64,000 bases of DNA from Chara braunii (taxonomy: Eukaryota; Plantae; Charophyceae), in the NCBI GenBank assembly GCA_003427395.1, contig BFEA01000003.1:7661020-7725019 (forward strand), given 5' to 3'. Positions 2,655 to 35,890 of the stretch are shown here, piece after piece (the stretch's first letter is position 1; each line of letters begins with the position of its first letter). The notes below the pieces were generated by a model, which was not told where the DNA came from, did not search any database, and saw only the letters and a program-made list of their open reading frames with translations. Made by a program: the position numbers and the translations under genes.

Positions 2655-3050
2655 TCAGTCTAAGGCAGGACCTTTCCCCTTCTTGTCTCTTTCGTAGGCT
2701 CGAACTATGTCGGGAGCTGTCGCTAGAAGTTCTGTTCGCGTGAACCAGCGGTCGTCTTCTGGTTCCTGAAATGCGAATCTGACTTTGTACTGTTTCTGTG
2801 GACGACCTCTACCTCCCGTCCTAAAGACGTCCTCACCTACTATCCCCTTGCTGTCATATCTTCCATCCATATCCAGAGGGATCATAGATCTGCGTGATGG
2901 GAACTGTTGACTTGTGACGCAAGGCAACAACTTCGACGCATGGAACACTGGGTAGGTGCGGAGGTGTACCGGAATCTCAATAGTATAGGACGGTCCATCC
3001 TCTCCGCCCTTGACTTCTAGGACTGGCCACGGTCCTCTATACGCAGGCAA
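2655..3050 (-). pseudogene. Gypsy integrase C-terminal GPY/F region and chromodomain
   Basis: YRGPWPVL...YPVFHASKLLP, then QYKVRFAFQEPEDDRWFTRTELLATAPDIVRAYE. Confidence 0.85.
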
Positions 3051-4383
3051 TAACTTTTGTGAGATGTTCTCCTCAGGAGCAAACTCTTTTGACTTGACCC
3101 AGACTAAGTTGCTACTTGAAATTCTGAGGGGCGACGGTGCTTGTTAGCTTGCTCTATCATTTTGTGCTGGGCTTTCTTGAGGTTGTCAATAACGGTAGCT
3201 ATCTTTTTCTCGTGCTGTATCGCAAACTCTCATGTTCCGGGCGGTAGCCTCTGAATCTGATCCCGGTTAAATCCATCGAACGGTCTGCTCGATCTGAAAG
3301 ACTTGTGCAGCTCGTTGGGAGTGCGACACGTAGATAAGTGCACGCTATTATTGTATGTACTGGCTACCTTAGGGAGCATCTCATCCCAGTTGATCTGGTC
3401 GGGCCTAATATACATCCTAAGAACTTGCTGCAGGAGCTTGTTCATCTGTTCAGTCTGGCCGTTAGTCTCAGGATGACGGCCAGATGACATTAACAACTTG
3501 GAACCATAGACTCTCATTAGTTCCTGCCAGTTCTGACTGGTGTATCTAGTATCCCTGTCACTAACTATCGACAACGGTATACCATGCTCACTGACCCAAT
3601 GGTCAAAAAACTTTTGAACTACTAAGTCTGTGCGTGCCTCTGCAGGCAAAGGAACAAAAACTGCATATTTACTAAACCTATCAACTATAACCATGACTTG
3701 ACTTTTGCCATGCCTACTCTTTACCCCAGTGTCCAAAGTTGATGGACACAGAATCCCCGGGTCTATCAGGAATAGGCAAAGGTCTGAGAAGACCAAGAGG
3801 GGCTCGCATAGTGGTCTTGTTTCTCTGACACACTTTACAACTGCAGACATACTCTATGCAGTCGGCGTTCATACCAGGCCAGATGTACGTGCACATGAGG
3901 TTGGCTATAGTGTCTTTTGCCAACCAAAGTGTCCCTCTGTGTCATGGCATTCCCCTAAGATCAAACTACAGATCTCTTCATTGTTGGGAATGCATAGGCG
4001 GCCAGCTACATTAGTCTTCTTGAATAATAAGCCGTCTGTAGTGCGGTAGTCTGGCTCAGACTCTAGAGCCTCCTTAACTCTCTTGAGGAGGTCACTATAG
4101 ATAGGGTCCTGTGCATATGCCTCTCTAACTCTTTGCTGCAGGTCTCTCCCTATATCCAAATAGTAAACTATTGCCCCAAAGTAATCAGCTCTCCTACTCA
4201 GAGCGTCCGCTACTACATTGTACTTCCCTTTAACTGGCTTCAGTTCAAAGTCATATTGGTCTAACTCTGCGGCCCACCTAGTAAGCTTAGGTGTTATCTT
4301 GGCCTGAGTCTTCAGCCACCTTAGAGTCTCGTGGTCTGAGTAGACTTTGAAGTGCCTCCCAAGCACGTAGTGCTTCCAATGAT
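3051..4383 (-). pseudogene. Gypsy pol: RNase H C-terminus and integrase (HHCC zinc finger plus DDE core)
   Basis: FKVYSDHETL, NVVADALSR, CHDTEGHFG, CKVCQRNK, VDRFSKYA, IVSDRD, HPETNGQTE spread over several frames. Confidence 0.93.
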
Positions 4384-5546
4384 TTAATGCTTGCCTGAGA
4401 GCGTAGAGTTCTCTGAAGGCATCCTGGCGGACATGAACTCTACGGGCCTATATCCATTGCCATCGTCTTGCTGTAGAACAGCACCTATGCCATACTGACT
4501 CGCGTCAGTGGTAACAACGAAAGGCAGGGACGGATCGGCTACCTTAAGGAATGGATATTCTATCAGGGCCCACTTTAATCTTTTCAGGGCAGCTGTGCAG
4601 TCCTTGTCCGACTTCCAGATTGCTTCTTTCTTTAGCAACCTGCGAAGGGGCGCAGCGATGGTAGAGAACTTCCTGACAAACTTCCTGTAATAATTACCTA
4701 GGCCTAGGAACGACCGCAACTCTGTCAGCGTGCGGGGCGTTGGCCAATCTCTAATCGCTGCAATCTTGCTATCTTCAGGTCTAACGCCGTCTCCGTCTAA
4801 GACGTGGCCGAAGTACAACACTTGTGTCTTGGCCCATTCGCACTTCTTTGCATTGATCTTGAAGTTAGTTTCTCTAAGTTTCTCCGATACCTGCCTCAGA
4901 TGGCCCTCATGCTCCTGGAGGGTCTTACTGAACACTAGAATATCCACTAGAATATCATCTAGATATACTACAACAAATCTATCTAACCACGGCCTAAACA
5001 AATCGTTCATACAGCGCTGGAAAGTCGCTGGCGCATTGGTTAGTCCAAAGGGCATAACTATAAACTCATAGTGCCCATATCTAGTCCGGAATGCTGTCTT
5101 ATACTGATCATCAGGATGAACCTCTATCTGATGATAGCCGGACTTTAAGTCTATCTTCGAGAAATACTTGCAGCCCTGCACCCGATCTAACAGATCATCT
5201 ATCTGGGGCAGTGGTTCTGCATTCTTCACTGTGATAGCATTGAGACCTCTATAGTCTATATACATTCCGAGCTCTCCCTCTTTCTTGGGGACAAAGAGAA
5301 CAGGTGCTCCAAATGGAGACGAACTGGGCCTAATCCAACCGTTCTCAAGGAGCTCGTCTAACTGCTTACGCAGCTCCTCTAGCTATCTTCGCGACATTCT
5401 GTAAATCGCTCCCTTAGGAGTCGTACTGCTAGGCTCTATCTCTATACAATGCTGGATCGACCGCGGCACTACTCCTGTAGGCGGCTTAACTAGATCTGTG
5501 TATTCTTCCAGCAGCTTGGCAATAGCAGGGTCTATGGGTCTCAGCT
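4384..5546 (-). pseudogene. Gypsy pol: reverse transcriptase and start of RNase H
   Basis: [52 protein letters not shown]; stops and frameshifts present. Confidence 0.95.
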
Positions 5547-6589
5547 GTTCGCGCGAATGTGAAGGGGCGCGAACACGTTCGCCATGCTACGCAGCATGCA
5601 AGAAAAGAACTGTTAGCTGTTCTTGGCCTTGACCACAAAGACCAGAAGGAAAAAGACGAAGTGACTCTTTTTGCCAATTTTTTATCTTCTTGGTCTGTTT
5701 GGTCTTTTTTGTTTCTGTGCCAGTGTATGGTCCTTTTGGTCTTTTGGGCAGTTTTTGTTTGTTTTGCAATTTTTTTTGTGGATTTTATTGCCTTGAATGT
5801 AGATTTACACATATTGAACTGGACTTCTGAAAGTAGTTTACAGAGGTTACAAGGCTGTCACCTGGAGAAGCCCATTGAAGGCTACTCTCAAGAGTCTCAA
5901 CGTTAAAATCCAAGATTTAGGTGGCTTGCCATTACGATGAACTAAGCTGTCTCCATCTACTCCGTGAAAATCATATGAAGTTTGCCTTAAACCAGTAGTA
6001 CCTTTCGCAGCCAAACTCGAAACACCAATTTTCCACAAACTGAATTCTTCGGGTTAAATTATTACTGGACCTCAATGGCTGACGCCGTGAGCTGAAAAAG
6101 AAAAAGAACGTTCAGCAAAGCTTGGCACACAGTTCTTTTCCACCTCGTAAAAAAGAACGGGTGATAGTGGCTCTTTAAACACATTATTTGGAGGGAGACG
6201 ACATGAAAATCATTTTCGAGTTACTCACCAGTGCCCATTTGCTGCTAATGTCTCCAATTCTGAAAGGCGTGAGAAAGTTATAACTTATAAGTGATTTTCA
6301 ATCCTCATCTATGTAGCCTTCCGGAGATTTTCACATTGCAATATGCTAGTGTACTAGGTGCCAGTGATACACAACTAACCTGTCCACATTGGCTGCAGCT
6401 CTTAATAGTCCCAGGGAGTTTGCTTTACGTCCCCACTATGTTGCAATTTGGCAACCCCTCATCTGCTCACAGTGCTTGATGATAACCGCTCTTTCTAAAT
6501 CCTGTTCGAATTCTTTGTTTTCTCTCCTCTACTCTTCTTATGCCAGGTACTGCTCATGACCTCCTCCTGGACTGCTTTGCTCCCGGTAT

Positions 6590-9160
6590 CTCTACTCTAC
6601 TCTCCTCTCTCCTTTCTGCTCTCTCCTCTATTCTCTACTCTCTACTCTACTCTCTACTTTACTCTCTACTCTACACTAGCCACTCTGCTCTCTATTTTGT
6701 AAGTTTGTACCTTACTTTCTACTCGTCTCTACTCTACTCTACTATACTATACTAGCTAAAATAGTCCAAATTCCAGCGACACAAACTGCTAGAAGTATTG
6801 CGAAAATTCTTCTCGATGAAGGATTTATAGAAAATTTTCGTGAAGTTGTGCTCTGCTACTCTCTAGTCTACTCGGTACTCTACTGTGTAGCGTACTCTAT
6901 TATACTCTACTCTGCTCTAAGCTCTACTCTCTATTCTACGCTACTGTACTCTTTTCTACTCTACTTTCTACTCTAATGCACTCTACTATACTCTCTACTC
7001 TTCTGTACTCCCTCTACGCTCTGCTCCACTCTACACTGCTCTCTGCTTTATTTTCTACTTTCTACTTTCTACTCTAATCTACGCTACTTTCTATTTTCCA
7101 CTTTGCACTACTCTCTACTCCCTACTGTTCTCTACTCTGTACTCCACTCTCTACTTTTCACAGCACTAATCTACTCTCTATTCTACCATGTACTCTGCTG
7201 CCTACTGTACTCTACTCTCTCTCTAGTCTACTCTCTACTCCACTCTAGTCTCTACTCTCTCTGCTTAGTATACTCTCTACTTTGCTCTNCTCTACTCTCT
7301 CTCTAGTCTACTCTCTACTCCACTCTAGTCTCTACTCTCTCTGCTTAGTATACTCTCTACTTTGCTCTACTCTACTCTACTCTACTCTACTCTACTCTAC
7401 TCTACTCTACTCTACCCCACTCCACTCTACTCTACTGTACTCTCTGCTCTCTACTCTACTCTCTGCTCTACTCTCTACTCTACTCTCTACTCTACTCTCT
7501 ATTCTACTCTACTCTTATGTCCTCCACTCTATTTTATCATCTACTCTACTCTCTGGTCCCCTCTCTACTCTCTATTCTCTACTCTCTACTCGCTGCTATT
7601 ACTCGCTGCTCTCTACTCTTTACTCTACTCACTAATGTCTACTCACCACTCTTCTCTCTAGTCTACACTGCTCTCTACTCTACACTACTCTCTACTCTCC
7701 ACTCTCTACTCTTAACTCTCTACTCTACTCTACTCTGCTCTCTACTGTCCTCTTCTCTACTCTACTCTCTTCTCTTCTCTATTCTACTCACTACTCTTTA
7801 CTCTCTACTCTTTACTTTCTACTCTACTCTCTCTACTCTACACTCTGTACTCAGAACTCTAGGCTACTCTATTCTACTCTACTCTCTACTCTATGATACT
7901 CCCTACTCTCTGCTCTCTACTCTGCTCTCTACTCTACTCTCTACCATATGCTACTCTCTACTCCATTCTATCACTGCCCTCTACTTCTCTACTCTACCCT
8001 TCGCTACTCTCTACTGTCTACTCTCTACTCAACTCTACACTAGTCAACTCTCAAGTCTACACTACTCTCTACTCTCTACTCTACACTATTCACTACTCTG
8101 CTCTACACCACTGTCTACTCTGCTCTACAGTAGTCTCTACTCTACTCTACACTACTCTGTTCTACTCTACAGTACTCTCTACGCTATACTCTACACTATA
8201 CTCTACTCTTCTCTATTCTCTTCTCTCTATTCTACAGTACTCTCAACTCTCTGCTCTACTGTCTTCTCTCCACTCTACACCATATCTACACTATACTCTC
8301 TACTCTATAACACTCTGTCTACTCTACTGTACTCCTGTCTCATGTCTACTCTGTACTCTACTCTCTACTCTACTCTACAGTGCTCTATACACTCTACATT
8401 ACTCTACACTGTACTCTGCTCTACTATCTACTCTACACTATACTTCCTACTCTGTCCACTCTACTGTACTCCCGTCTCCTGTCTACTCTCTACTCTACTC
8501 TCTACTCTAGTCTTCTCTCTATTATACTCCCTGCTTTATACTCTCTATTCTCACCTCTACCTTACACTACTGTCGACTCTCTACTCTCGACTCTCTGCTC
8601 TACTCTACTGTCTGCTCTCTCCTCTATGCTACACCACTCACTCTGCATCATACTCTTTACTCTACTCGATAATACTGTCTACTCTGCACTATTCTACTCT
8701 ACTCTACACTCTACTCCACTCTACTATCAACACTTCTCTATTCTACACTATTCTACTCTCTACGCTCCACTGTACCGTACTGTACTCTACTGTACTCTCT
8801 ATGCTTCTCCACTCTATTATATTTACTTGACACTACTATAGTACTTTACGCTATACACTACTACTCTATAATAGACACTCTATAATAGACAATATTCTCT
8901 ACTCTCTACGTTCTACTGCACTCTACTCTCTACTCTGCTCTGTACGCTGTACTCTCCAGTCTATTCTACAACACTCTATGCTCTCTACTCTATTCTATAA
9001 CACTCTATACCATCTACTCTTCACTACTATTTACTTCATATTCTACTATACTCTCCTCTACTCTCCTCTACCGTTCACTGTGCACTCCACACACTCTCGA
9101 CTCTACTCCACACCATTAACTCTACTATAATCTTTAATCTACTCTACTACATTGTAGTCT
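6590..9160. repeat. Degenerate (CTCTA)n pentanucleotide satellite / low-complexity tract
   Basis: Near-perfect CTCTA run at ~7366-7415 with degenerate flanks; internal ~81-bp duplication around 7210-7370. Confidence 0.95.
6755..6846 (+). pseudogene. rps8: Plastid-type rps8 fragment (NUPT)
   Basis: Translates [30 protein letters not shown], resembling the plastid S8 segment KTVQxPAT..R.IAKILL.EGFI.NF; AT-rich island in the satellite. Confidence 0.8.
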
Positions 9161-9455: not shown

Positions 9456-9876
9456 TAATCCTTCCGCAGTTTCACCTATGGATAAGGTTCCTTCCTCTAA
9501 ATGATAAGGTTCCATGTACTTCTCACAGCACCACCAGCGGCAAACCACTGAGATCACCGTGATCCAGACACTTCACCGGACCATTTAATCTGCAGGAACG
9601 ACGGCTGGTCTGTGCAAAGGGCAGTGACGTAATCAGCGTGAGCTGATGACTCGCTCTACTAGGCATTCCTCGCCCAAGATTGATAATTACAACGATCTAG
9701 CCCTGTCACAATGAACCTTGAGAAGTTTACCCTGGCCTTTCGACCTTAGGCAAGCAAGTCGTTGGATTCATCAGTGCATAACTCGCTTGCGGCCCAGAAC
9801 ATCTAAGGGCATCACAGAGCTGTTATTGCCTCAAACTTCCGTTGGCTAATCGTCCAACAGTCCCTCCAGGAAGCTG
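9456..9876 (-). pseudogene. 18S rRNA 3'-end processed pseudogene
   Basis: Reverse complement of conserved SSU motifs (atccttccgcag.ttcaccta; gcggcccagaacatctaagggcatcacaga.ctgttattgcctcaaacttcc) with many substitutions. T-tract 9421-9455 and TSD-like flanks. Confidence 0.92.
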
Positions 9877-9984
9877 CGCTGGCTCAGCTTGTTGGAATAC
9901 GTAATACAAATGATGTGCTTCTTTAAAATTGAGCCCTCTTTTTTTTTGTTGCCCACTTTTTGCTAACTGGAGGTCAGTGTCATG

Positions 9985-10051: not shown

Positions 10052-13000
10052 CGGGCATCACAGAACCCCAGAGGTCAAGCTTCACACCAGACTATCTTCC
10101 GCGAAACGAATCATCGCAGGGTACCAATTGTCAAAACATATACCCAGTTTCCATTTCAGCAACCCCCCCCCTACTGTCTTCCCCTGAACACAATGCATCC
10201 TAATTATGACTGCATCCAACCGGAAAGTTGGCTTGTATACGTTCAGAATCAGGGTAAATTGTGTTCAGGGGAAGACAGTAGTGAAATCCATCAAATTCGA
10301 TACATGCGGCAAGCACACGAAGAGATGATTGGATCAAAAGAGAAGCAGACGGGCAGAGTAGAGAAAGAACAGCGATGGAAGGGGAGGAAAATACCACACA
10401 TAGAGACTCCTGGTAGAACCCAAGGCAACTCCTTTTCATGTATGAAACAGGCTCATGTCGCAAATGATCACCCTTCATTCCACAGTGTCAACATACACTT
10501 GTTCACACCACCAGTCTTGTTGCTGACCCAATCGACAGTTTGTCTCCTGATTCGCACCCCACATAGCGATTATCCCGAGATGATGCTTTCCACTTCCCCC
10601 TGATACCTTCACATGCTTATCACCTCCTCACTCCTCTCTTGCAAAGAATTTTGTAATCAACGTAACCACCTCTCCGATCCATGTGCTCAAACTTAATCCA
10701 CACTGCTTGTGATCATAGCAACTCAAACGAGGGACATGGAGTGTGCTTGAACTAAATCCACGCTGCTTGCGAGCATTCTCCATGTCCCTCATAGACTCCA
10801 ACTATGCTAAGAATTCTACGAAAAAAAGACGACTAACACACATAACGGTCATAACCCCGAATATATTGAAGAACTCGACACCCTCCATCAGGTCCACCAG
10901 GAAGGCGTCTCGAAACCGCTCTCGCTGACTCATCTCCTATTCACAGCGCTGCCGTTCCTTTCTTACTTCCGAAGTTCCTATGTCAGCATGTCATAGATTA
11001 TATACAGTGGAACACTTAACTGTAGGGACATGGGATGTTAACTGGGACGAGTATGAAGTGGGTGTCCATTGACAAGGAACGAGATGTATGTTGGTGTGAG
11101 AGAGCGTGCCACCTCGAAAAATTTCCATCACGATTACCATAGCAAGGGTAGACGCGAAGTTTATATTGGGTGACGGAATGGTATGGCTATGGATTAGTGG
11201 CATATTATTATCCCTAAAGGATGCTTTTTGCTGCCTGCCACGTGCCAGCTCATCAGAGGGAACATTAAGATCACAAAACATGTCCAGAACCGCCATCACG
11301 GCAGCTTTGCACGCCTGGATTCAGCAGAGAGGAGATGGAGGGGGAAGGGGGAGAAGGCACCATTGTCGAGTTTTTTACCATGCTGGATCACGAAGGGCTG
11401 AAGGAGATTCCCCAGCATCGAGCATCTCGTAACGCGTGGAATCCACCATGAGTAAATTACCGAATAAACTGACTCGTCACGAAAGCGCTGAGACCTCGAC
11501 GCTATCTAGCTATCTAGGGACGTAAGCCGGGCTACATGCACAAGCGCAGTCGTAGCTGCGCCTTACCTCTGCGGTGGAAGAGGAATTGCCCATGTGCATT
11601 GTTCAAATACTCGTTCACCATTGCTTGCCACTAGTATCCAAGTCCCCTGGGCAAATTCCCAGGCCCTTCTCCATTTCAGACCTTCGGGGTACCCTTGCCC
11701 CCTACATGGGTCAATCATCTTTCCATAGGGTGCCACCCGTGGGGGCACACATATGCAAGCGGGCAAAGACAACTCTTACTCAGCACCTGAGGCCAAAATT
11801 TTCCCCACACATCAGAGCCACTACCCTTCGAAGGCAATGATGGGTCGACCATCAGTCCCAATTTGGGGGGAACACATGTACCTTAAAGCACAAGCATCCA
11901 CCTTCACATTGCAATGCACCCGACTGCAATCAATCGCCAATCCAACTTCCCAAACGCAGAAGACTCACAAAAGTATCACACCGAACAACGAAACCACGAA
12001 TCGACATGGAGATGAAAGTGCCCTGCAAACTCTATATTAATATACAAGCGGAAAGCCGGTGACAGAGGGCGGAACGAAAGCAGCAGGAAGTGGAATGGCG
12101 AACTCGGCTCTCCAACTCAGCGCTTGGCATGGCCAGGCAACATTATTTGGCACGGGTGGCACTATATGGGCTGGGTGGTATTATGCAGACCGGGCAGTGA
12201 TATGTGGGCTGGCCTATATGGTGCGGTGTAGGTGGGCAGCACTACACTGGGGGGTTGCCCCACCTGATGCATGTGGTGGGCTTCTCTGGACGCATCTGGC
12301 CCGGGCAGTCCACACCCGGCTGCTCTGTACTTGTATTTGAACAACCGTCCTTGGGCATTGCTGCATGTGCCCAAAATGCATTGAGAGAGTCCTGTGTGAG
12401 CATGCCGGGACGCCCGTGAAACTGGCCGGCAGAAAACAACTAAGCACAGCAAAAAGATCCACTGCCAGCGAATCATAACGGACGAATAAGGGCATGCCGA
12501 CACTGCGACTTAAGGCCTCGCACCACTACTCTCCAAATGTGCAAAATGAGACTGAATCCTCGACTAGAAAATGGGAAAATGCCTTGCCATATTTTTTGCC
12601 TTTTGTGCAGGTGGAGAGTAGTGGAGTGAGGTGCGCCCTTGTATTCCAACAGCCGTTCATCCAAGCGCTTTGCTGGATGTGTCTCATCGCGGGCTGAATA
12701 TGTCTCACCCTGGGGTAAGGCCTGGATGTACCTGGGCCAAATCACATCCAGAAATAGGGCCTCGCTCCAGTACTGATGCATGCTCACCTGATGGGTGAGC
12801 AATGCCAGAATGACCGAAGGAACAACCTATGTGACGGATAAGGACTCAAACAGACAATGTGCAAAACAAGTAGCAATGTGTACTCAGATAGACCGGTGGA
12901 ATCATACAATGTAGCACAGCGGAAGACTTAAAGATATGACCTGACACATCTGACCCGGACTCGATTCATGCAATCATCATCACACCTGCCGCACAGCAAG

Positions 13001-14174
13001 GAGGGGACATACACAGAAGAAAGGTCCCTTCTTGCACACACACATGGGGAAGGAAACCACAGATGATGACGAGGGGCAAGAGAGAGGAAGATGAAGAGGG
13101 GAGAGAAGACGAGAGTAGAGCTCGTAGTTGTAAAAAAGTCTCCCCATCAAATGTCCAACCAATGCTGTCCTCAAAATGTTGAATCATATCCTGGGCGTTG
13201 AAGGCCTGATAGTAGTCACTGTCTCCTGATGATGATGCCACAAATACTGACCAGCAAAGGTCATGACTCCCCATGCAGGTCACTGCTGAAGGCCGGTCTG
13301 ATGACCGGTATGAAGTCCCAGCTATGGCGCCCAGGTAAGTCTCTCTCTCCATTGTGAGCATGGCCTCCGCCAACCCCTCCCCCCAGCCTACTCCTCCACC
13401 TCCACCAGCACTGGACTCCTCCAGTGGGCAGCCTGGTGGCACACGAATGAAGTGAGAACCTTCCTTACAAGCTACTGGGTCGGCCTCTCCTAAATAGTGC
13501 AGGGCCGGCCTCACACTCAACCCGGCCTCTAATCTGGGCCGTCTGATCAGCCAAGTATCCGCTGAGAGGCTGTGTGGCCAGGCTCTGGCCAGGCTTCCTA
13601 AGGCTGGGAGCCCACTGGCCGGCGGCCTGGAAAAGTTTTTCCGCTGACGTCATTTCGGGACCCCACCACTGCCACCAGGCGCCAGGAACAGTTTTTAGGG
13701 AATGCCTACCTCAATTTCAGACCCCACCACCGTTCTGGAAACACTGTTGACCATGTTTCTACATGGCTGGCGGCTGGAAAAGTCTCCGCCAGAAACCGGC
13801 AGTCTTTTTCCGAAGTCCCCTCCAGCAGGGTAGGGAGGGCAAAGTGCCATCCATTGGCATCAGAGGCCGGCAGGGTGTGGTGCAGTCCACGGGCCTCACA
13901 GACTTCCGGCTGGACCAAGATGAGAGGCACCAGGAGGTAACATGTCTGCTGCACCACGTGGGCCATCCACACTTTCCTTTCCGGGAGGGCCCCCTTGCAG
14001 TTTTCCTAATGTGGCAAGCCTGGCCTTCTCCATAGCCTTGCCAGACGTTGGCAGTGGGGTCGTGTCAAAACATGCCAAGGAGCTTTTCCAGCCGCGGGCC
14101 AGTGGGGTGCAAGCCTAAGCAACCTGGCCAGACTTGAAACCAGTCAGACTTAGAAAACGACAAGCTAAAGTGCG

Positions 14175-14425
14175 GATAAGACACCCCCTGATGCAAAATG
14201 AATACAGGACCCTTAAAGAGGGATGCTGATAAGACACCCCCTGATGCAAAGTAAATACAGGTCTCTTAAACAGAATGCTGATAAGACACCCCCTGATGCA
14301 AAATAAAGACAGGTCTCTTAAACAGAATGCTGATAAGACACCCCCTGATGCAAAATAAATAAAGACAGGTCTCTTAAACAGAATGCTGAAAAGACAGCCC
14401 CTGGCCCAAAAATAAATGCAGGCCT
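14175..14425. repeat. ~52-bp minisatellite, about 4.5 copies
   Basis: Unit gataagacaccccctgatgcaaaataaagacaggtctcttaaacagaatgct at ~14175, 14228, 14280, 14332. Confidence 0.9.
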
Positions 14426-14635
14426 GATGGAACACACGACCAACCGACACGTGGCATTTGCACAGACACACACACAGACACACACAGCGCTTATGAGAAG
14501 GCTAGATCGCCAATCTCTGACGCCTAATACCAATGAAGATAATGGGAAGAGGTGCGTCGATGAGTCATCCCGCCCTTGATACACCATACTTGATGTATCC
14601 ATATATAGAGCTCGAGAAGGCAGAATAGAAAAAAT

Positions 14636-15872
14636 AACAGAACCTTGTGGTCCTGGCTCCTTTTCCATTCTGGGGAGTGTCAGTCCGGTTCGTTTTTTTT
14701 TTCTTTTTTTTTTTTAATAATACAGAACCTCACGGTTCTGGCTCCTACCAATCTGGGGAGCGACAGTCTGGTTCCTATTCCCCCGGCAAATCAATATGGA
14801 ATACATAAAAGACACACACACGCTCCTCCCCATTATGGCTGAGAGGCCCGAGTGGGCGGCATTGATTACTTCCCTAGGGAAGGATATACCACTTCTCACC
14901 CCTGCCTAATCTAGCCTGTGATAACTCTGCCCGCCTATCTGTCTGCAAATCCATAAGGAATACATAAAAGACTCACACACGCTCCTCCCCATTATGGCTG
15001 AGAGGCCCAAGTGGGCAGCATTGATTACTTCCCTAAGGAAGGATATACCACCTCCCACCCCTGCCTAATCTAGCCTGTACTTACTCTGCCCGCCTATCTG
15101 TCTGATCCCAGATCTGCTCCTCTCAGCTATAAAGCTGTCTGATAGCTATGATTATGCAAGGGCATTCTGGAACACTTATGCGCCTTTTGAAACCTCTATA
15201 ACTCTCCAACAGCATTTGCCTTGTTTCTGTCTAAGCCCTAAAAATCTATCTGTTGCCAACCGTCCAGATATAAATTACCTCTCATATACCCCAAAAACTC
15301 TCTATGTTTTCACCCAACTATGACCCTTAACCTCTAAGCCCTTCCTTCTATTCTTAACCCTGAACCACTTCCTTCTAAACCCTAAACCCGACTTTCCCTT
15401 ATTTGGGTGCCCTTCCCCCTTTCGTTCTTCCCTGTAGTTCTATGTCCAGATAGGAATTACCTCTCCTATACCCCAAAAACTCTCCCTGTTTTCACCCAAC
15501 GCGTCAGTCCGGTTCCCTTTTTTTTATTCCTTTCCTCTTCTTCTTCTTCTTTTTCTTTTCAATCTTCTCCTCATTCCCTTCTCCTCTCTTCTCTCCCCCC
15601 CCCCTTTTTTTTTTTTTTTCCCCCTTTTACCCTACTTAGCTTGAAATACTCCATCCCTTGTCTTCTCTTATCTCGAAAAACAGGGAGAGTTTAAATGTTG
15701 TAGTCAGCATCAGTCCAGTTCCTATTACACCGGCACATCAAAAACAGATACAAAGCTCACACAACTCCAATGCTTCTCCTCATTATGGTTGAGAAATCTG
15801 AGTGGTTGGCATTGATTACTTCCAATTGGAAGGATGTACTTCCTCTCTCACCCCTGCCCAAGTAAGTTAGCT
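14636..15872 (-). mobile_element. Nested stack of non-LTR retroelement 3' ends (repeat family A plus two inserts with TSDs)
   Basis: Family A (acagaacc...ctggctcc...cagtccggttcctatt...cattatgg...gcattgattacttcc...cccctgcc) is split at gtcagtccggttc. Inserts 14692-15502 and ~15517-15706 each start with a T-tract. Related copies at ~16030-16140, 21121-21295 and 43647-43712. Confidence 0.8.
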
Positions 15873-18419
15873 TTTTTTGAGGTATCGCTTGAGCCTTTTT
15901 TTTTTCCTAGCCTACCTACCTCGGTCTCCGGAACCTCCCTTTCCTTTTTCTTGTTATGAAGGATGTGCTCTCCGCCACCCTGCCAAAATTGTGCTGGAAA
16001 CCAGGTTCAATGTCCCGAGGCGAACATGGAAAACTCACGCAAGTCTTCCTTCCATTATGCTTGAAGGACCCTGAGACAGCGGGGGGTATTGATTGCCCCT
16101 TTTGAAAGGACATTGTACCTCTGCTCTACCCCTGCCTATTGTTAAGACTTATCCTTACATCCTCCTGTCTGACTCACTTTCTTCCTCCCTGCTGTGCCGT
16201 GTCCCGAGCCTGAGGCCCATTGCAGCCAAGTCCCCCTAGTGGAGCTTGTGAGGAACTGTCAGTACCGCACCTAAGGTCCCGTCTATCTCTGCCCCTTTAC
16301 GGATCCTACCTGTCTTGTTACCCTAGCCCCGTCCCTTCCTTGCCCTGTCTCACTACTTAGAAACCTTGTCATTCATCTACTGCTCAGTGCTGCTGGACCT
16401 CCCTTTTTTTTTTTTTTTTTTTTTAACAAACCGGGCCCAGTGCCCAAGGCTGATATTACCAATAAGAAGATTAAGGCCGTACACACCCAGGTAAAAACAG
16501 AAATAACAGTCCACTGGAGAAAGACAAAGGGGGAGATGGATAGCAAACCTGACAAAGCACAAGACATTCTAGTAAGAGAATATCAAACTACCGTCTTCAG
16601 CCGAATATAACGCCCAGTCATTATAGTCGTATTTGGGGCCATTTTCTGTCCAGATGCAGCGATTATGACTGGGCGTTCTATTTGGGTGAAGACGGTAGTC
16701 ACCTACCTGCAGGTAGAATCCCACGTATCCGTGTGGCCGGAAGCTCAGTGGGTGGAGCACCAGTTGCAAATGCGCGTTGTGGTATAAGGTTGTGGGTTCA
16801 AAACTCAATTGCAGCCTCGCACATGGACACCGGCAGGTGTTGACAACGCACAGCCATTTGCACACTTCATCCCTTTGGGCTGATGCATGGTAAGGATTAC
16901 AGACACTGCCTGCGCACCAGCCAAGGGGTTTAGTCCATGGTTGTAGTATGCTGGTAGCGGGCCTTGGGGGAGGGCTGTTCGAGTGGTTGGCCTTGGTTGG
17001 TCCGACGAGTGTGCGTGCGTGTGTGTGGGCTGTGTGTGGTGTGTGGTTCAATGATCTCTGGGTCATGTCTCATGTACTCACCATGGGCAGGGTAGAGGAG
17101 TTAGGCTGGGGTAGAGGTGTTAGGTTTGGATTAGGTTAGGATAGGAATTTGTGTAGAGATTGTGGGCCGGTCTGTGTGCGCCGCCTCGTTGGCATGCACT
17201 GCTCTGTGGTTGTGTCATGGGTGTGTCTGGGTACAGTAGTGGTTTCCCGGCCTCATGGTACACTCACGAGAGTCCATACCTACATTGTACGATTCTGGTC
17301 CCGGTCTGGCCCCACTCTCTACACCCCCCTTGAGTCGTGGTAAGGGTCGGGTGTTAGGCATATACAATTCCCAAGGGCGGGCCTCATTTCTACCTTACGA
17401 TGCTTGCGGGCTGGGCTTCATCCAGGCTGGTACCTGTCTATGTTCCCGTTGAGGAGGTCGATTGGGGTGTGAATCTGGGGAAGAGTTTCTGGGTAGGGGT
17501 CTCATCTTAGGCAGGGGAGAGTGGGTGGTCGCATAGAAGGGTGGTTAGTCACCCATAGAGTCTGCTAGATGTGATACAGGTGGGGATGAGTCGGATGACC
17601 ACATATCTGTGACCCCTCCTGTGCCTGGGTCGTCCTCGAGAATTCGGGGTGTCCCTGTGGTAGTGCCCAGGGGAACTCTGAGACCCTCGGCAGACGCGGG
17701 TTGGTGCAGGTCTAGGTCTGTAGACAGGTCTAGGTCGCGCCGCTATAGGGCTTGACTTGCGATCTGATTAGGGCAACGAAAAGTTCACGAACGATGCCCC
17801 CTGGAGGAGACTGTCCTTGGGGCTGTCACAACCCATCTGATCTCCCCAATGGTTGAGTATGACGACAGGCACCTCCCGAAGCCTGGCATCCAACCTCTAC
17901 TATGATCTGGACTTTCAAAAACAAAAAAAAAACAAAAACAAATGAAAGATCGCACGTATCCATAAGGGAACAATCATCTTTAACAAGTGGCAGAGAATGA
18001 CAATGACAGTGTTCAGAGCATAGCACACAGCAGAGAGAACAGAGAGAGTCTATAATCTGGCGAGCATGTGACTGACGCATGCAGCAACTTGCTGTACTCA
18101 GGCCCAGCCTCTTTTTCGCAGACCTGCCTTCACTTAGGGTGGGTGGGGGCTTTTCCTGGCTGACCCAGGTGCTGAATCCTCACACAATAGTTCAGTGATC
18201 CATTTTGTCTCAAGTGCCTTAATTTGGGGTTCCAGATCTAGGATACCCAATCCACCTTTTAACAACCCCCCCCAACTCCCCCCCTTGCCCCTTATATATA
18301 CTTAGGATGTGTACGATAAAACTAAGAATCTCCCCAAAACTGATGTATTTACGGCGGGAATTTTACGCCGGTCTAGACGTCCATCTTCTGCTATGTCTCT
18401 TTCAAATCTGTATAGTTCA

Positions 18420-18622
18420 GGCCCTTCAGGGATGCCGGACCCAATTTCCAGCAAGTGCAGCTCCCCACCATTAGATGGAGCCCTCCAACCGGGGACCTCT
18501 TTACAGGGGATGCTCCATCTATTAGTGGGGACCACTTTACAGGGGATGCTCTTATCACCCCGGCAAGTGACAACCCCTTCCATTGAGGTTCTGTTAAAAA
18601 AAGAAAAAAAAAGAAAAAAATT
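18420..18622 (+). mobile_element. SINE-like / LINE 3'-end repeat with A-tail (family B)
   Basis: Similar to 36117-36268 (ggacc..atttccagca.gtgc.gctcc.cacca.tagatggagcc...gatgctcttatcacc); both end in poly(A). Confidence 0.7.
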
Positions 18623-19077: not shown

Positions 19078-19123
19078 NNNNNNNNNNNNNNNNNNNNNNN
19101 NNNNNNNNNNNNNNNNNNNNNNN

Positions 19124-19498
19124 TTTTACCCTACTTAGCTTGAAATACTCCATCCCTTGTCTTCTCTTATCTCGAATCCTTCCAAACCGACTACAACATT
19201 TAAACTTTAAACTCTCCCTGTTTTTCGCCTACCACCACGCTTAAACCCTTAAACCTTTCCTGAACTCAGGCTGTTTTCTGCCGGCTACTACCGCCCTTAA
19301 ACCTTAAACCCTTCCTGAATCCGGAGTGTTATCTCTCCCTGTTTTTCACCTACTACCACCCTTAAACCCTAAACCCTCCCTGAACTGAGGCTGTTTTCCG
19401 CCGGCTACTACCACCCTTAATCCTTATACCTTCCTGAACCCGGACTGTTATCCTCCGGCTACAACCCATAAACCTTAAACCCTTCTCTTTCCCCCAGT
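19124..19498 (-). mobile_element. Truncated non-LTR element 3' UTR with ~60-bp internal tandem repeats
   Basis: The first ~53 bp are identical to 15625-15677; repeated ctactacc.cccttaaaccct.aaccc.tcctgaa units. Confidence 0.7.
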
Positions 19499-19514
19499 GC
19501 ATCAGTCTGGTTCC

Positions 19515-21120
19515 TTTTATCCCTTCTGCTTGCTTACAATTACCCGCCCCCCCCTTATAAGCACTTTATCCCTAATCCTCTGTCGTCCCGAATCTTCCCC
19601 AATTCACTGCAACCCTTGACCATAAGCCCTCCCTATTTTCCGCCATTTGCTACTCTTGAAATGTACACCCTCTCCGTTCCACACTGTTCTCCATCTACCA
19701 CACTTCCTCACCCCAATTCTTTCGTAATCGTGCGCAGATACCTCCTATCACGTCATCCCTTTCACCCCCCTCTCCATTCGAACACCAAATGAGCTTCTTG
19801 GACGGCTGCTGCTGCTCCGTTACCTAGTACATTTTGCTTGAAACGTTTCATGATTTCTTCCTCTTTCTCTAGCCATTGACGTATTTGGTTCCTCACTAGT
19901 TTCCACTGGGCCTTGAGATGTGTTTCAGTGAGGGTTAGGAAAATTTCCTTAGCCTCTTGCCTATGCATTGTTGTAGCCTCAATTGTGACTTGACATCGAC
20001 GCTTCCAAATAGTCCAAAGGGCATATTGTCTTATCATCTGGAACATATGTTTCTGAAAAGGTTGTCATTGCTTGGGAACCCTTAAACCCAGCAATAAAGA
20101 AATCTTTGAGTCCGGGAAAGCAATCTCTGTTACTTGGCCCCAGATACCCCTGGCCACTTCCCAGATCGCAGTTGCCTCCTCACATTCAAGTAGGCAATGC
20201 TGCATTGTTTCTGGTATTCCTTCCTGACATACCTTGCATAACTCCTTCTCCCCACTTCTCTGCGTCCGGCTTCTTCGTTGATTAAGCCATACATTCACTG
20301 GGAGTGCCACATGGGCTATTAGCCATTGCATACTCCTGACCGGGCCCAGGCGTATTGCCCCTATGTTTGCCCAAGGAATGTATGTCAGTTGTCCTCTGGT
20401 TACCCCTACCCTCTTTTCCCATCTCTTGAGCAGCATCTGTGTCATGGAGTATGATCGGCTCCTCAATCTATACCCTATTCTTGTGGTGTAGTGTAAGATA
20501 TTTACTCTCCTTGATGTTCCTGTCTGGCCACTTCTGATGTTCCACGCCCATTCCACTGGGTCCACTTCCAGTTCTTCAATTGGTACTGCCGGATTATATA
20601 CCGTAAATATCTCTGTCTCTACCACCCTAACTTTCTGCAAATACTGTTTGAGGATGAATATCGGAGCTTTAGTCGCACTATCCAGTTGGGACGTGGTGAT
20701 GGACGGCTGAGTATTTGATATTTATCTGCTATTAGCCAGTCTGGTCTAGAGGGCTCTGGCCCCCATATCCTAAAGACTTCCTTGGGTTCCTTATCGTCTT
20801 CCCATGTAGCCCAATCCCCCAATCCCCACTGCGTTCCGGCCTGCAACCGAAGCTTCCACTCTTGTGGTTTGGCTCCTAAAACGATTTGCAGATTTTCTTG
20901 TAATTTGTGACATCCTTTCAGATGCCTTCTTAGCTCCGTGAACGTTTTCCACCTCTTCTCTCCTTCTTCCCAGAGATGTTTGACCTGCCATACCCCATGC
21001 TCTAGCCACCTTCCCCACTTCGTGTCTGTTACCGATAGCGTCAGTGGTTTACCCTGTCCATCCTTAATATTTGCATTGCAAAATAATGACTGCCTAAGAA
21101 CTTCCTCCCAAACCAATATG
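19515..21120 (-). mobile_element. 5'-truncated L1/Tx1-like LINE: ORF2 C-terminus with CCHC zinc-binding domain
   Basis: CKVCQEGIPETMQHCLLECEEATAIW and ALWTIWKRRC motifs; VLRQSLF segment resembles VLRQPLF of the adjacent LINE. Confidence 0.88.
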
Positions 21121-21475
21121 CACCGTTCGGTTCCTAGTCCATCACCGTTCGGTTCCTAGTCCATCGGCAAGTCAAAAAGAATACATATGGGGACTCACAC
21201 ACGCCCTTCCCCTTTACGGTAGGAAAGACCAAGGGGCGGCATTGATTACTTCCAGTCAAAAGGATGTACCTCCCCTTACCCCTGCCTAAGTTATCCTGGA
21301 CTACTCTGCTATTTTTATCGAATTTGATTGTTGGGTTCTGGGGCCCTGGAGTCTCTTCTACTTGCAACTGCACGAGCCGCACATTCGTGCGGAGTTCCGT
21401 GCGGAGTACCGGGGGGGTGCCTGTGTGGAATCGTGGAGGTTTTTTATTTTTATTATTATTATTTTAATTTTTTTG

Positions 21476-21920: not shown

Positions 21921-24900
21921 GGCACTCCTGTAAATTGTTTTTTCATCCCGCTTATAATTTTGGCGGGGGGCCTCAAACACACCGTTTCGACCCCGGCCTT
22001 CTTTTTTTTCCTGAGGGGGGTAACGGGTCGTTCCCCTCACACGTCGTGTGCCGCACGGGATCGGTTGGGCACGTGCGCCGCACGCCAGGAACCGCCCGCA
22101 CGACGCGCGCTTGCAAGTACAGTTTTAAGGCTTTTAAGATCTATACGCCCTATGGCCGGGGAAATTTGTGTTGGTTCCTCCTGTCTTGAGGTTCTGTTTC
22201 CTCGTGTGTGGGAGGGAACTATTGTGGTTGAGGTGTGTGGGTGGAGGGGAAGTTTGGGGGTAGAAAGCTATGTGAGGGGTGGGCTTTGTGGAGTGGATAC
22301 GGTGGTTCTTGGGGAGATTGTGAGGGGTCGGTGGTAGGTGTTTGGTCAGGGATAGTTGGAGATGGGGTTAGTTATTATGTTGGAAGAGTGAGGATGCTGT
22401 TATTGTATGCAGTGGGAAGGATTAGCCAGTTCTTAAGTGTTAGTGTTATTTTTTATTTGTGTCTAGTTGTCCTGAACCTAGTTTTCGTGATGTGAACTTT
22501 TTAATTATTTCAGCTTTTTTGACAGGTGTGTTACACATTTGTTTTTGGGTTTTTTTCGAAGGACATGTAATTCTATTTCTATAATCTGTTTTATAGTGAT
22601 GACTGGGTTGTCGGTGCTGGTGGGCCGAGCCTCGAAGGTTTTGTTGCATCTTATTTTCCATAATCCCCAAAGGATACCTTTCCTGATTAGGGAGAAGAAG
22701 AATGCCTCAAATCCTTTTAGAGGTGGGTTTTGTTCCATTTCAAGGAAAATTGTGCCAGGGCTTATTGTGATTGGGGTGTTGGAGAGGGTACTCCATGTCT
22801 TCTCTAATTTGTGCCGGAGTTTTCTGGCCTTCGGACAGTCTAAGAAGCAGTGGTTTAGTGTTTCGGGGTCTGTAGATTGCAAACTTTACACCAAGAGTCT
22901 TGTTCTGATCTGTATTCTTTACTACGTCTTTGTGCCAGCCAGTGGTTCACTGGACCTGCTCTAAAGGCGATCAGCCATCTTAGGCTAGCTAGTTTCACTG
23001 GTCTGGTGCAGAAGATTGATGTCCATGGTGGGGATATTTGAGATTCGACTAGTGTGTTCTCTTCTTTTGTCCATCTTTTCTGTAGGGTGTTGGTGATCGA
23101 GTTGGGTTTTGAAAAGAGTCGGTAGCCTAGTTTTGGCTTGAAGTCCGTTAGTTTGTGTATACTTGATATAGAAGAGGTGTTATTAGGAGTGCCCGAGGAT
23201 CATTCTGTTGGATCTATTTCTAGTTCCTGAATACTTGACTGTGGCTTGAAGACCTTGATCCCCTTCCATGATCCTTATTCTTCTCAGAGAACTTATTATG
23301 AATGATGCTTTTGCTCTGCTTTCTTTGTTGAGGTAGCTTATGGGTTACCTGGCTCGTTGAGGATGAAGATGTTGCAGCATATCCATTTTTTGTTTTGGGA
23401 CTAATAAGTTTTGAATTTCAGGACTTCCAATATTGTGTCTGTGTCCGTTTTTACAGCCCAATCGCCATACTGCCATTTATGTTCTGATCTTAGTAGCCGC
23501 CTCCATTCTATTGGAATGCTCTCGATGATCTGATTTATGGATGTTTGGAGGTGGTGGGTGCCCTTCAGTGCTGGCCTCAGGTCTTTCTTTGCTTTCCAAG
23601 TGTTGGAAGTCTCCTCCCATAGGTGTTGGATTTGCCATATTCCTCTTTCTACCCAATGACCCCATTTGGCCTCTGCTGAGGAGAGGGGATAAGGTTCTCC
23701 CTTCTCGTTTTTGATCCAAGGGTTTCACAAAAAGGGGTTGTCTGAGGACTCCGTCTCTTCTTTTGGGACCAATTCTATTTTCTGGGAATATGTATCTCCA
23801 AATGCGAAGAATATGAGCCCAACGAGATTTAGGAGGTTCATTATCATGTGCTCCGTCTAGGAGAGGATGTGAGTTTTGGTTTCTTTTGCTTTTGGGAAGT
23901 GCCCAATGCTTATTGTATATCCTGAAAAGACCTGACATGTTACTCGGGGATTTGAATGGGGCTAGTTCCCTGATGTGGTTAAGGGCGAGGGGAGCCCAGT
24001 GTATTTTATCCTGAAGCAAAATTCTCAGGATCCACTTAACATGGAGGGCTTGGATCTGACAAGCTGGGTCTAGAAGGCCCAATCCTCCTTTGGCTTTAGA
24101 TTGGGTGATTGTTTGCCAAGACACCTTGTGTATGAAGAGATGATTGTCAGGGTTGCCTGACCAGAGGAAGGCCACTGTCCTTTTTCTGATTTGGTTATGG
24201 AAGTCGTCTGGTGGGAACCATATGGAGGTGGCGTACCACATCATGGCTAGAATTGAGTTTTTCACGGTAAGGACTGTGGCTAACAACGATGAGTGTACTC
24301 CTTTCCACGTGTCCATTCTGTTGATCATGGAGGAAAGTACGGAAGCTGTTGATGTGTTATGGCTCCCTTTTGTCGTTAAATTGATTCCTAGGAAACGGAT
24401 CGGGGTGGAAAGGTCTGCCCAGCGCAATCCCTCTGGAGATAGTTCTGTGGGAGGGGGGATTTCCGAGAACCACCATCCATTAGTTTTGGGCCAGTTAACC
24501 TTTCTTTCATAGGCCAATTGGAAGGCTTGCATTGCTTTTGTTAGTGCTTGGAATGATGAGTTGGATGCTCTGATCAAGACTGTGAGGTCGTCTGCAAATA
24601 AGAGAGTGGTAGGGATATGTAAGGGTTGTCCTCTTTCGTCCTTGATGTTCATGAGTCTCTCGATGGATGGGTCCTTTCTTAGGAAGGCTGTTATGGCCTC
24701 CATTACAAAAAAGAAGATTGGTGTTGCTAGTGGGTCACCTTGTCTTACCGATCTTGACATTTTGTACGGGTTGGAGAGAAAGCCATTGATCTGTACAATT
24801 CCCTGGGCTTCATTGTATAGTATCCTTACCCATTTCCTGAAAATTGGGCCAACACCCATTTTCTCCATGCTGGGTTGGAGAAAATCCCAGTTGACCTGAT

Positions 24901-26605
24901 CGTAGGCTTTCTCAAAATGAAAGAAGAGAATTGTTGATGTGATCTTCTTGTGGTGGACTCGTTGAGGGCCATTACATTGTCTAAGATGAGTCTGTCTGGG
25001 ATAACCCTGTTTGGTCGAGGTGGAAGCAACCACTTGTGATACGATTGATTTGGGAGGCAAGGAGTTTGGCTAGAATTTTGTAGGATACATTTAGTAGGGA
25101 AATGGGTTTATAGTTTGCAATGCCCTCTTTATTACCTTTTTTGTAAAGGAGGGTTACGACTCCTGTGCTTAACGTTGGACCGAGGGATTCTTTTTCCCTG
25201 GCTCTATTGAGGAAGTCTAGGTAGAGGGGCCCAAGTTTGTGCCAACTTGCCATCCAAAATTCTTTGGAAAGGCCATCCTTGCCTAGTGCCTTGTTGGGTT
25301 TTAGGTCCTCGAGGGCTTAGAGTAGCTCTTCAGTTGTGATGGGAGCTTCCAATATGCTTGCTGTTTTCGTTGATAATGTATCGTTAGAAATTTGGCTCTT
25401 GCTCTTAGTGAATCGTTTTGTCTTCCTGCTGGAATCTTACTAGTATAGAAGTCTTTGTAGCTATATTAACTAACTGGGTTGTTTTTGAGGTGGGGTTGCG
25501 GTCTTTGGTGATTAGACTTTCTATAGAGTTCGTGGAGTTAGATTTGATTTTTTGGAAGTAGAATTTAGTCATTTTTTCGTTTAGTTCCCAGTCGTTCATT
25601 CTGGCCCTAAGTTGTAGTCCCCTGAGTTTTAGTTTTGTCCATTCTGTTAGTTCTTCTTTAGCCTTGGAATATATTTCTACGTAGAACTCTGAGTTGGTGT
25701 CCCTTTGGAGGTTTAATTCGGCTATTTCTATTGCGTTTTGTAGTGCTTCTACTCTTTCCTTCCTTTGGGATGCTAGTTTTCTTGATGCTATAGATACGTC
25801 GTTGCTGATGTTCTTTAGGATTTCTGGGAATCTGATGTATATATCCTCGTGTGGTTCGATCTTTGTCTGGGTGCATAGTATGTTTTCTAGGTCAATCTGA
25901 AAGGTTTGGCTAGTTAGGAGAGCAGTGTTGAAGCGAAAGAAGCTTTTACCTGTGTAGCCCGTTTTTGTGAGCCTGCGGGAGAGTGTGATTGCTTTGTGGT
26001 CTAGGCCTTTGTAGTAGGGATTGTCATGTATTTTGCAATCTAGTATGACGCTTGAAAGGGATTGCGAGGTAAGGAAGAAGTCTATTCTTGTGAGAGAGGT
26101 TCTACCGTGGGAGGTGTTTTTGACACAGGTAAAGCGTTTTGTGTTTGGTGCTAGGAGGCTGTAAGGGTGTAATACGTTTTTCCTTGTGATGAAGTCTCCA
26201 AGGTCTATGCCGTTAGACTGTGGTAAGGGGTCTTGTGAGTTGAAAATTCTATCGAAGGAGGGATCTCGTACCGATTTCCAATCCCCCATTAAGATGGTGT
26301 GTGTGTGGGTAGAGATTAGATGTTCCAAGGAGAGGAGGAAGGGTTTTTTTTCTTGTATGGCGTTCGGACCATATATCCCTAGGATGGCTATGTCTTCCTC
26401 TTTGAGTTTGATATCTGCCTTGACCCACCTGCCCGTTGCATTGTCCTGGCTTGTGGCTTGATTTGTTATGCTATCACTTGAGGATGAATTCTGATGGAAA
26501 AGGATGAGTGTCCCTGCAGAGCCATTCGGGGCCGCACTAGCCCAGACTGTGAATTTAACAAAATGCAATTTCCTCTGGACTGCAAGTTGGATTCTTTTGT
26601 GTTCC

Positions 26606-26671
26606 TCGAACCAACATCCATAACACGAAGATCAGAATCACCATCAAGAAAAAAAGATATCATGATGTAGG
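26606..26671 (-). pseudogene. cox2: Mitochondrial cox2 exon fragment (NUMT)
   Basis: Minus strand C CTA CAT CAT GAT ATC... = (D)LHHDIFFFLMVILIFVLWMLVR once one missing T in the T-run is allowed for. Confidence 0.9.
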
Positions 26672-27116
26672 ATAGGGGTCAGTGCAAAATGCCTGCCCTC
26701 AGAACCACACGTTACAGTTTCCCGTCATGCAGCTCGCCCCCTAAAACCTTAGCCTTGTTTGTGGGCTCGGGAAGGGAAGTTGACAAACAGCTTCGCTTCG
26801 CACCTTCCGACTCTTAATTGTTCGGAATCAATTTCACATGTAGCTAGAGTATTGATTTCCTGACCTTGCACTGTGCTCAGCAGACGCTTCGCGTCTGATC
26901 TGATGCCAGATAAGAGAATCGCAGATATCTGGAAAAAGGCTAGAGGTGTGTCTTGTCTAAGCTGAGCACGCTGAGCACTTCGTGCCTTCTACGACCTTAG
27001 TGAGCAATAAAACAAAATCATCTGCTGCCGTAAAATTTTTGTTCTGTCGAAGAACGACCTTGCTTTCGCATTTGTTTGTTTCTTGGAGATCCGCCAGCTC
27101 TGCGCCTCTTTCTTAT
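26672..27116 (-). other. 3' part of a mitochondrial group II intron (cox2i104 position), NUMT
   Basis: Domain V gagctgcatgacgggaaactgtaacgtgtggttc (~26702-26735) and domain VI ending acccctAT directly before the cox2 exon, splitting an Asp codon GA|C. Confidence 0.85.
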
Positions 27117-27399
27117 TAGGTGAGTTTGTTGTAGGCATGTTATGTCTGTGGGGTTTTGTCCAAACCAATTGATGGTTTCTGTCAGATGTCTCCATTTGAT
27201 TGGGTTGTCGGGAACCGAGGCCGGTCCATTGATGTTCCATGACGTGATGGATAGTTCTGGTTGTTTCCTAATTTCCTTTTGGATATCGACTTTTGTGGTG
27301 GGTTTGAGTCTCTTCGGACCGCGTCCAGCCCCCTCCATCTGGGAACCATCTGGTGAGACTTCCATTGGTCAGAGGGATGGTTGTCCTCAATTAGGGGCT

Positions 27400-31660: not shown

Positions 31661-31723
<63 letters not shown>
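31661..31723. repeat. Poly-G run adjacent to a gap
   Basis: Direct reading; may be a sequencing or assembly artefact. Confidence 0.7.
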
Positions 31724-31724
<1 letters not shown>

Positions 31725-32940: not shown

Positions 32941-33454
32941 CTAGAGTTCACAACCTTTTGATTTGCTGAGGAAGGACAATCCCATTACGAATCTGGGCAT
33001 TCTTCCTGTGTCGACACAGAAACTGACGAAGACGGACGTAAAGTGTTCACCTCGTCGTTTACCGAAGGCGAATGAAGCGGCGGAGGATGGAGCAAAAACA
33101 GCAATTATGGGGACAGGATCTGCTTGTAATGAACGGCTATTCGGTAGGGGCATACTAAATACTTGGAACCAGTAGCGGTAGGGGCATATCAAACATATTT
33201 CAAGCCCAACTGACACCAGGGGTTTCTCAGAAACTTGAGTCGTCTAAGAAAGAGGCGCAGAGCTGACGGATCTCCAAGAAACAAACAAATGCGAAGGCAA
33301 GGCCTTCGTTCGGCAGAACAGAAATTTTACGTCAGCAGATGATTTTGTTCTATTGCTCACTAAGGCCGTAGAAGGCACGAAGTGCTCAGCCTAGACAAGA
33401 CACACCTCTAGCCTTTTTCCAGATATCTGCGATTCTCTTATCTGGCATCAGATC
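32941..33454 (+). other. Second probable NUMT of the same mitochondrial intron
   Basis: 33245-33454 is a slightly diverged reverse complement of ~26897-27116; the extension to 32941 is inferred only. Confidence 0.65.
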
Positions 33455-34357: not shown

Positions 34358-34770
34358 ATATAACTGGGTAGAATTTGTTAACTGCTGTGCACACTGTAAG
34401 TGCCAATCCACCTTAACCCTGGTTGCGGTCGAGCATCAACAATGGCCCCACAACTGACACCTTCCTGGTGGGTGGGGACCACCAAGCACTCCCTCAAGGG
34501 TGCGGTACCCACATAACTGGGAAGAATTGGGTAACTGCTGTGCACACTGCAAGTGCCAATCCACCTTAACCCCGGTCGCGATCGAGCATCAACGATGACC
34601 CCACAACTGATGCCTTCCTGGTGGGCGGGGACCGCCAACCACTGCCCTCACGGGTACAGTACCTATGATGAAAATCAAAGCAGTTTATCACTCACCGACA
34701 CCAGATGGACCTATGATGAAAATCAAAGCAGTCCATCACTCACCGACACCAGATGGAAGACTCTGCAGAC
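34358..34770. repeat. Dispersed repeat family C with ~153-bp and ~47-bp tandem duplications
   Basis: ataactggg...aagtgccaatccaccttaaccc occurs twice; a diverged inverted copy is at ~45077-45237. Confidence 0.8.

Positions 34771-35830: not shown

Positions 35831-35890
<60 letters not shown>

Follow-up and report, generated by a model that had tools for sequence, protein, structure and literature searches.

How several retroposon ends came to lie head to tail at one and the same short word is the question raised by this locus of Chara braunii, a stretch of 64,000 nucleotides (hereafter the window) of repeat-rich eukaryotic DNA with N gaps. An initial annotation had proposed that a LINE/SINE group targets the 3' UTR of its own relatives and regenerates the target through the TSD. 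Our analysis makes it probable that three or four retroposon ends were inserted head to tail, all on a single strand and at one 16-base word of a repeat termed family A, and that one Chara L1-type lineage prefers and duplicates this word.

The duplicated word, GC(G/A)TCAGTCCGGTTCC, is 16 bp long and internal to family A. A search of the window with the 16-mer returned six sites with zero to two mismatches, the next-best sites having four. With a 14-mer and at most two mismatches, six occurrences were again obtained, all on the + strand, against 0.30 expected, and none of 100 shuffled sequences reached six. The insertion point, orientation and TSD length are fixed: T2 and T4 begin exactly at the first G, giving 16 bp, T3 has 16 or 17 bp with one base being ambiguous, T5 is decayed, and all are on the same strand (Table 1). 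The initial annotation had noticed an exact 13-bp pair (14679-14691 and 15503-15515), which is indeed present, but the repeated unit is really 16 bp; the two CpG-type differences that it had reported between the word closing the second insert (15707-15722) and 15501-15516 were confirmed.

Table 1. Features of the two stacks and of a control copy, in order of position in the window.
Feature	Positions	Strand	Remarks
Host A1, 3'-terminal piece with terminal hairpin	14630-14676	-	93% identity over 56 nt to 43646-43700; profile E 4.5e-20
Target copy T1	14677-14692	+	last base G instead of C
Insert 1	14692-15500	-	A-tail, family-A 3' end, two 159-bp units, spacer, B-like upstream UTR
Target copy T2	15501-15516	+	both CpGs intact; one contig of run X5 reads across it, 5 differences in 174
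Insert 2	15517-15706	-	GA-rich tail, 53-bp family-B 3' end, 32-bp inverted 5' segment
Target copy T3	15707-15722	+	between insert 2 and the 5' part of host A1
Host A1, 5' part	15723-15872	-	73% identical to the first unit of insert 1; profile E 3.5e-43
Older family-A units	15950-16175	-	alignment score 88; 0/300 shuffles as good
Family B, second copy	19124-19498	-	55-bp tandem repeats; tail and left flank in or beyond the N gap 19078-19123
Target copy T4	19499-19514	+	between B and LINE Y
LINE Y	19515-21119	-	5'-truncated, frameshifted L1-type ORF2 C-terminus (zf-RVT E 2.7e-7), 250-bp 3' UTR
Decayed target T5	21120-21164	+	family word with 3 changes; site overlain by an exact 22-bp tandem duplication
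Host A2, 5' part	21157-21310	-	profile E 1.2e-48; 71-75% identical to other A units
Control: short A-tailed family-A copy	43613-43712	-	empty target at 43686-43701; the copy itself is not inserted at the word

The word is well conserved in family A as sampled by the reads, where C occupies position 2 in 97.6%, and CCGG is retained in ~98.6% by depth, each CpG base being changed in 1.4%. At position 3, G and A are found about equally, and because GCAT and GCGT are thus family variants at ~50:50 in the reads, a difference between word copies need not reflect decay after insertion. A CpG-type change is present in most word copies of the window, so that these are older than the bulk sampled by the reads. 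Among 40 A/T tracts listed, only the tract at 14693 comes after the word, in a scan whose threshold exceeded the length of the T-runs after T2 and T4.

The first stack opens with host A1, the left piece of which begins at ~14630 without an A-tail of its own; its hairpin is present in the centroid fold, with an overall z-score of -0.6. Insert 1, led by a T-tract at 14693-14715, had been thought to carry the same type of 3' end as its host, and it is in fact an A-type end inside an A copy. It has its own empty target at 14760-14775 and is 5'-truncated within a 57-bp internal repeat. The homology of its upstream part to family B was equaled by none of 1000 dinucleotide shuffles, and the alignment of a related contig ends at 15500, the boundary of the insert. 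In insert 2, positions 15625-15677 are identical to 19124-19176 of B, and 15674-15705 are the reverse complement of B at 19189-19227 with one substitution and a 7-bp indel, the inversion joint having a 4-bp overlap. An inversion whose joint overlaps by so few bases is in line with the twin priming known from L1 (PMC2912911). The 13-bp duplicate, the T-tract and the resumption of the host, for which family A takes up again at 15723, all lie where the initial annotation had placed them; the inversion in insert 2, the older A units up to ~16175 and a second stack at 19124-21310 extend beyond it. A 52-bp tandem repeat is located just to the left of the first stack (14171-14422).

The T2 junction is real, being found in reads or contigs of three runs, and one record per DNA run crosses its end at a depth of 32-39, which is 2-6 times that of unique-looking contigs. 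The T1 junction is known from the assembly alone, as read placement skipped 14620-14725 as a repeat. The recovery of T2 in independent runs bears on the idea that an assembly artefact or a recent segmental duplication made the repeated words and the second stack. Such an origin could be suspected from 53 identical bases beside an N gap in a short-read scaffold with several gaps, but identity between the two hosts is only 71%, and there are differences among the word copies and in the 5' structure of the B copies, so that we regard it as very improbable.

The second stack is 4 kb from the first and is composed, in + strand order from the N gap, of B, T4, LINE Y, the decayed word, and family A resuming in register. 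B is homologous to the 3' UTR of LINE Y (score 28, reached by none of 1000 dinucleotide shuffles), and when part of the Y UTR was scanned separately, no unrelated tile among 586 exceeded a score of 14. A direct homology between the Y UTR and insert 1 was dropped, since 84 of 1000 shuffles were as good, and the link goes through B. LINE Y itself retains only the C-terminus of ORF2 with zf-RVT, and the fragment contains no EN or RT domain. Its homology to LINE X, a relative elsewhere in the window, extends to within ~15 nt of the junction; as Y is cut inside ORF2, the word at this junction is not its own sequence. The word is present at the 5' junction of each of the three Y/B copies found in the window. 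The TPRT marks in the Y/B set are an A-rich tail, a TSD, and 5' truncation or inversion, the tail being weak for Y, and an L1-group non-LTR lineage appears to be the best reading of these sequences. At the outer end of this stack, T4 and T5 differ at four of the last 13 bases, which is consistent with the 25-29% divergence of that host and would make them a weak TSD. The 22-bp exact tandem duplication at 21121-21164 overlies the target site and reaches 8 bp beyond the word; speculatively, it could possibly represent an abortive nick-and-repair event.

The initial annotation took the word for a target and not for a part of the inserted elements' termini, and rightly so, because four distinct 5' truncation points abut it, one of them in the coding sequence of ORF2. 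In addition, three different 3' termini (A, B, and Y) come after the word. Composite elements could account for part of this arrangement in another way, with T4, and perhaps T2, being internal to a long 3' UTR or carried by read-through, so that each stack would correspond to one or two insertions. LINE Y shows just four T after T4, and such an almost tailless end could be internal to a composite of Y and B, the latter being a paralogue of the UTR of Y located directly downstream. Insert 1 is itself a B-like UTR followed by A, and the raised depth at T2 hints that a composite was copied as a block. However, directly after T2 comes a long tail that belongs to insert 2 itself, the two B copies have different end points, each with the word after it, and the outer junctions T3 and T5 rejoin family A in register. 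We consider composites unlikely; even with them, the source of the word would have to be a duplication of the UTR or a previous insertion at this site, and present-day targeting would be weaker.

Repeated insertion at a preferred word also has to be distinguished from a local hot spot, where this pyrimidine-purine step happens to suit an ordinary relaxed L1 endonuclease, and regional targeting or tolerance, in place of an evolved sequence-specific enzyme, produces the cluster. All filled sites, and hence both stacks, fall within 7 kb, most sites genome-wide are empty in the reads, and A and LINE X insert elsewhere too, as a hot spot would have it. The word, however, is not like the TTTT/AA consensus of human L1, and the single-nucleotide precision, the one orientation and the near-constant 16-bp duplication would be hard for a relaxed enzyme to produce, making this explanation distinctly improbable. 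The chance of at least three random insertions at such sites in the window was crudely estimated to be 1e-9 to 1e-6, for assumed counts of 4-8 sites and 20-100 insertions, at +/-1 nt and on the right strand, with events treated as independent.

Family A is a high-copy, A-tailed repeat of ~200 bp. In run X1 the summed depth at the word is ~204,000, compared with 4-12 for unique-looking contigs; this suggests copies on the order of 10^4, although depth is not copy number. Tails were seen before the family-A 3' end in 47 and 50 contigs per run. Many contigs depart from the reference ~200 bp upstream, at 14909-14917 (33 at 14909 and 26 at 14917 in X1). Depth is 25,000-36,000 in the first unit and drops to ~2,000 at 15116 and 90-230 beyond 15240. 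These departures and the more than tenfold fall upstream of the units indicate that family A is mostly short and SINE-like and that long forms such as insert 1 are rare. The family shows the marks of a SINE in being short, non-coding, A-tailed, and high in copy number, with a recurrent 5' end. The repeat has what we take to be a U1-like look; no credible Rfam match up to E 10 was obtained on 14500-16500, ARAGORN gave no tRNA, and a small-RNA origin (U1-like or tRNA) was rejected for want of support from either. A head of tRNA, 5S, 7SL or snRNA descent thus did not turn up.

The ~160-bp A unit has two hairpins that are kept in five diverged copies (14780-14925, 14940-15085, 15725-15870, 16020-16160, and 21155-21305; minus strand), although five related rows prove little. 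The second hairpin shows both-sided changes in four of six pairs, and the terminal hairpin of A occurs in three of three centroid folds, with overall z-scores of only -0.6 to -1.1. A ribozyme in the unit, considered by eye, had no Rfam match. A metagenome scan with the A terminus and word gave one match, an unrelated G+C-rich sequence that was judged to be a chance hit. Reads of RNA runs on family A derive from many copies and are uninformative on the expression of this locus. Another A-tailed family is present on the + strand at 18427-18620 and 36117-36269; the last ~16 nt of its copy at 18.6 kb are common with the family-A terminus, with 11 of 300 shuffles as good.

Self-targeting by family A as a whole is a separate matter. 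One of the two tailed family-A copies in the window is at the word. The initial annotation had called for a count of filled versus empty A sites, and in the reads over the empty word site 353 of 399 (X19) and 115 of 123 (X18) continue past the word, so the sites are mostly empty. Among the 24 loose-end rows listed at the empty site, none is a T-tail at the end of the word, and those behind the word are family-A continuations. The share of family A inserted at the word is suggested to be under ~15%. This bound is soft, as young copies dominate and the aligned part of a filled-site read is only ~30 bases long; it nevertheless implies that the majority of A copies went in elsewhere. Since the copy at 43613 is off the word and 88-93% of the reads are of the empty-site type, strict self-targeting does not hold for family A as a whole. 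In the window its copies lie at distinct places 22 kb apart; their flanks vary in the reads, and most are unfilled. The proposal of self-targeting with regeneration of the TSD is thus borne out by the repeated same-strand insertion, by the word re-created on both sides and by a second, ORF2-bearing stack, and does not extend to a general rule for family A.

In the mechanism that we propose, the APE endonuclease of the Y/B lineage would nick the + strand after GGTTCC, and reverse transcription would start on the RNA tail. A second nick in the other strand, 16 bp away, would generate the 16-bp duplication, both nicks being at C-T steps. Each insertion would leave two usable sites, on which later copies could stack, and an A-type insert would bring a third; the inversion of insert 2 could have arisen from twin priming. 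Family A would be a SINE-like short form whose 3' region is common with longer elements of the lineage, and it would have spread mostly without site preference, leaving many empty sites and a minority filled. A more far-reaching reading, which we put forward tentatively and with some doubt, is that a streptophyte-algal L1 lineage evolved a sequence-specific endonuclease targeting the 3' UTR of its own family, while a short, non-specific derivative sowed the target at some 10^4 places. If true, the element manufactures its own landing pads, and the lineage that led to land plants has a target-specific APE LINE belonging to neither of the animal groups Tx1 and R1. A "safe harbour" role of the stacks is something that we infer only.

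An endonuclease can be inspected in LINE X (~21440 or 22200 to 30400, minus strand), a near full-length, frameshifted L1-type element with CCHC-like ORF1, EN, and RT. LINE X and LINE Y are relatives (30-46% at the amino acid level) with differing base composition. LINE X has human L1 ORF2 as its best solved relative (E 1.5e-17). The endonuclease hairpin loop, a feature whose role is treated in PMC1950540, has 12 residues in LINE X compared to 11 in Tx1L and 9 in human L1, the best solved match being the LTx chimera (E 3.3e-5). As LINE X is not at the word, its loop length is only suggestive for word targeting; there is no word at its likely 3' tail, and its 3' end was rejected as a homologue of A because 7 and 150 of 300 shuffles were as good. 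In a 20-row RT tree, which left out P0008 and had no rows labelled Tx1 or Zepp, LINE X groups with seven proteins, apart from the group (100/99) to which the named flowering-plant L1s belong, on a long branch of 2.08. The Tx1 clade, treated as an L1 subgroup in PMC5203782, is described as found in animals in PMC4494074, and the nearest proteins of LINE Y are two from Chara braunii (75-77% identity), followed by one from Sphagnum (34%), these being three hits among 1518 candidates. A stretch of ~350 bp, in which a group II intron fragment lies (26672-26737), interrupts the EN of LINE X, and positions 26897-27115, within LINE X, have a 90% inverted copy at 33245-33454.

Among known systems, the closest architecture is that of crocodilian SINEU-1/2/3 and Tx1-Mar, which insert into Mariner-N4_AMi, a target repeat of 11,801 copies (PMC4494074). 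The same paper reports a 16-bp TSD, tandem insertions sandwiching the TSD, a preference of 13% to 90% depending on the family, and a criterion for target-specific families of more than 20% of flanks of one type (PMC4494074). The Chara stacks resemble this system in having several families at one site inside an abundant repeat, a 16-bp TSD and tandem stacks. They are unlike it in that the crocodilian target is a DNA transposon in an animal host, whereas here the target is in the 3' region of a related retroposon, so that an insert can bring a new empty site. The TSD of SINEU-3 (PMC4494074) is equally long and contains both hexamers of the word in its GCAT form, in opposite order, which is probably a coincidence.

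A further resemblance is to the L1 elements Zepp and ZeppL, known from Coccomyxa and Chlamydomonas (PMC3446292, PMC8226300): these, too, belong to the green lineage and nest into copies already present, with arrays mostly of 3' ends. Nesting of this kind is found here in the A-type end of insert 1 within an A copy, and in B and LINE Y, of which B is related directly, and Y through B, to the upstream UTR of insert 1. In contrast, Zepp forms one cluster per chromosome, probably centromeric, whereas family A is dispersed and mostly unfilled. Tx1L in Tx1D of Xenopus is an APE-type LINE at a specific site in another mobile element (PMC1950540, PMC4494074), and its loop length is close to that of LINE X; it differs in having a DNA-transposon target and a strict specificity shown biochemically, while the loop here is seen only in the off-word LINE X. 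The stacks share an A-tail, TSD, 5' truncation, and inversion with short overlap with human L1, but the latter nicks TTTT/AA promiscuously, whereas one fixed G+C-rich word recurs here.

The Chara stacks appear to work like the known target-preferring systems of the L1/Tx1 group. What is new is the host lineage and the target inside the 3' region of a related retroposon; the architecture itself is known. Our search of the open literature found no description of the Chara families A, B, and Y, which Repbase, subscription papers or supplements may nevertheless contain. Target-specific APE-type LINEs have been reported mainly from the Tx1 and R1 clades (PMC4640811). If a charophyte lineage has a defined 16-bp target, it would provide an independent case for the evolution of specificity, a connection to the self-nesting Zepp elements, which build algal centromeres, and a new natural endonuclease with sequence selectivity.

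The window also contains a broken Gypsy-type LTR retrotransposon with RT, RNase H, integrase, and a weak chromodomain (2658-5382, minus strand), a degenerate CTCTACT array (6589-9020), and an isolated APE endonuclease fragment of another LINE (44305-44790, + strand). Palindromic MITE-like elements and a 588-bp inverted repeat are present at 10171-10281, 16587-16699, and 34764-35351, and a diverged 2.3-kb duplication at 49273-55102. A segment at ~9650-9900, which does not reach the Rfam gathering score, is what we take to be a decayed SSU rRNA fragment, and a decayed LSU rRNA fragment lies at 56777-57055 on the minus strand.
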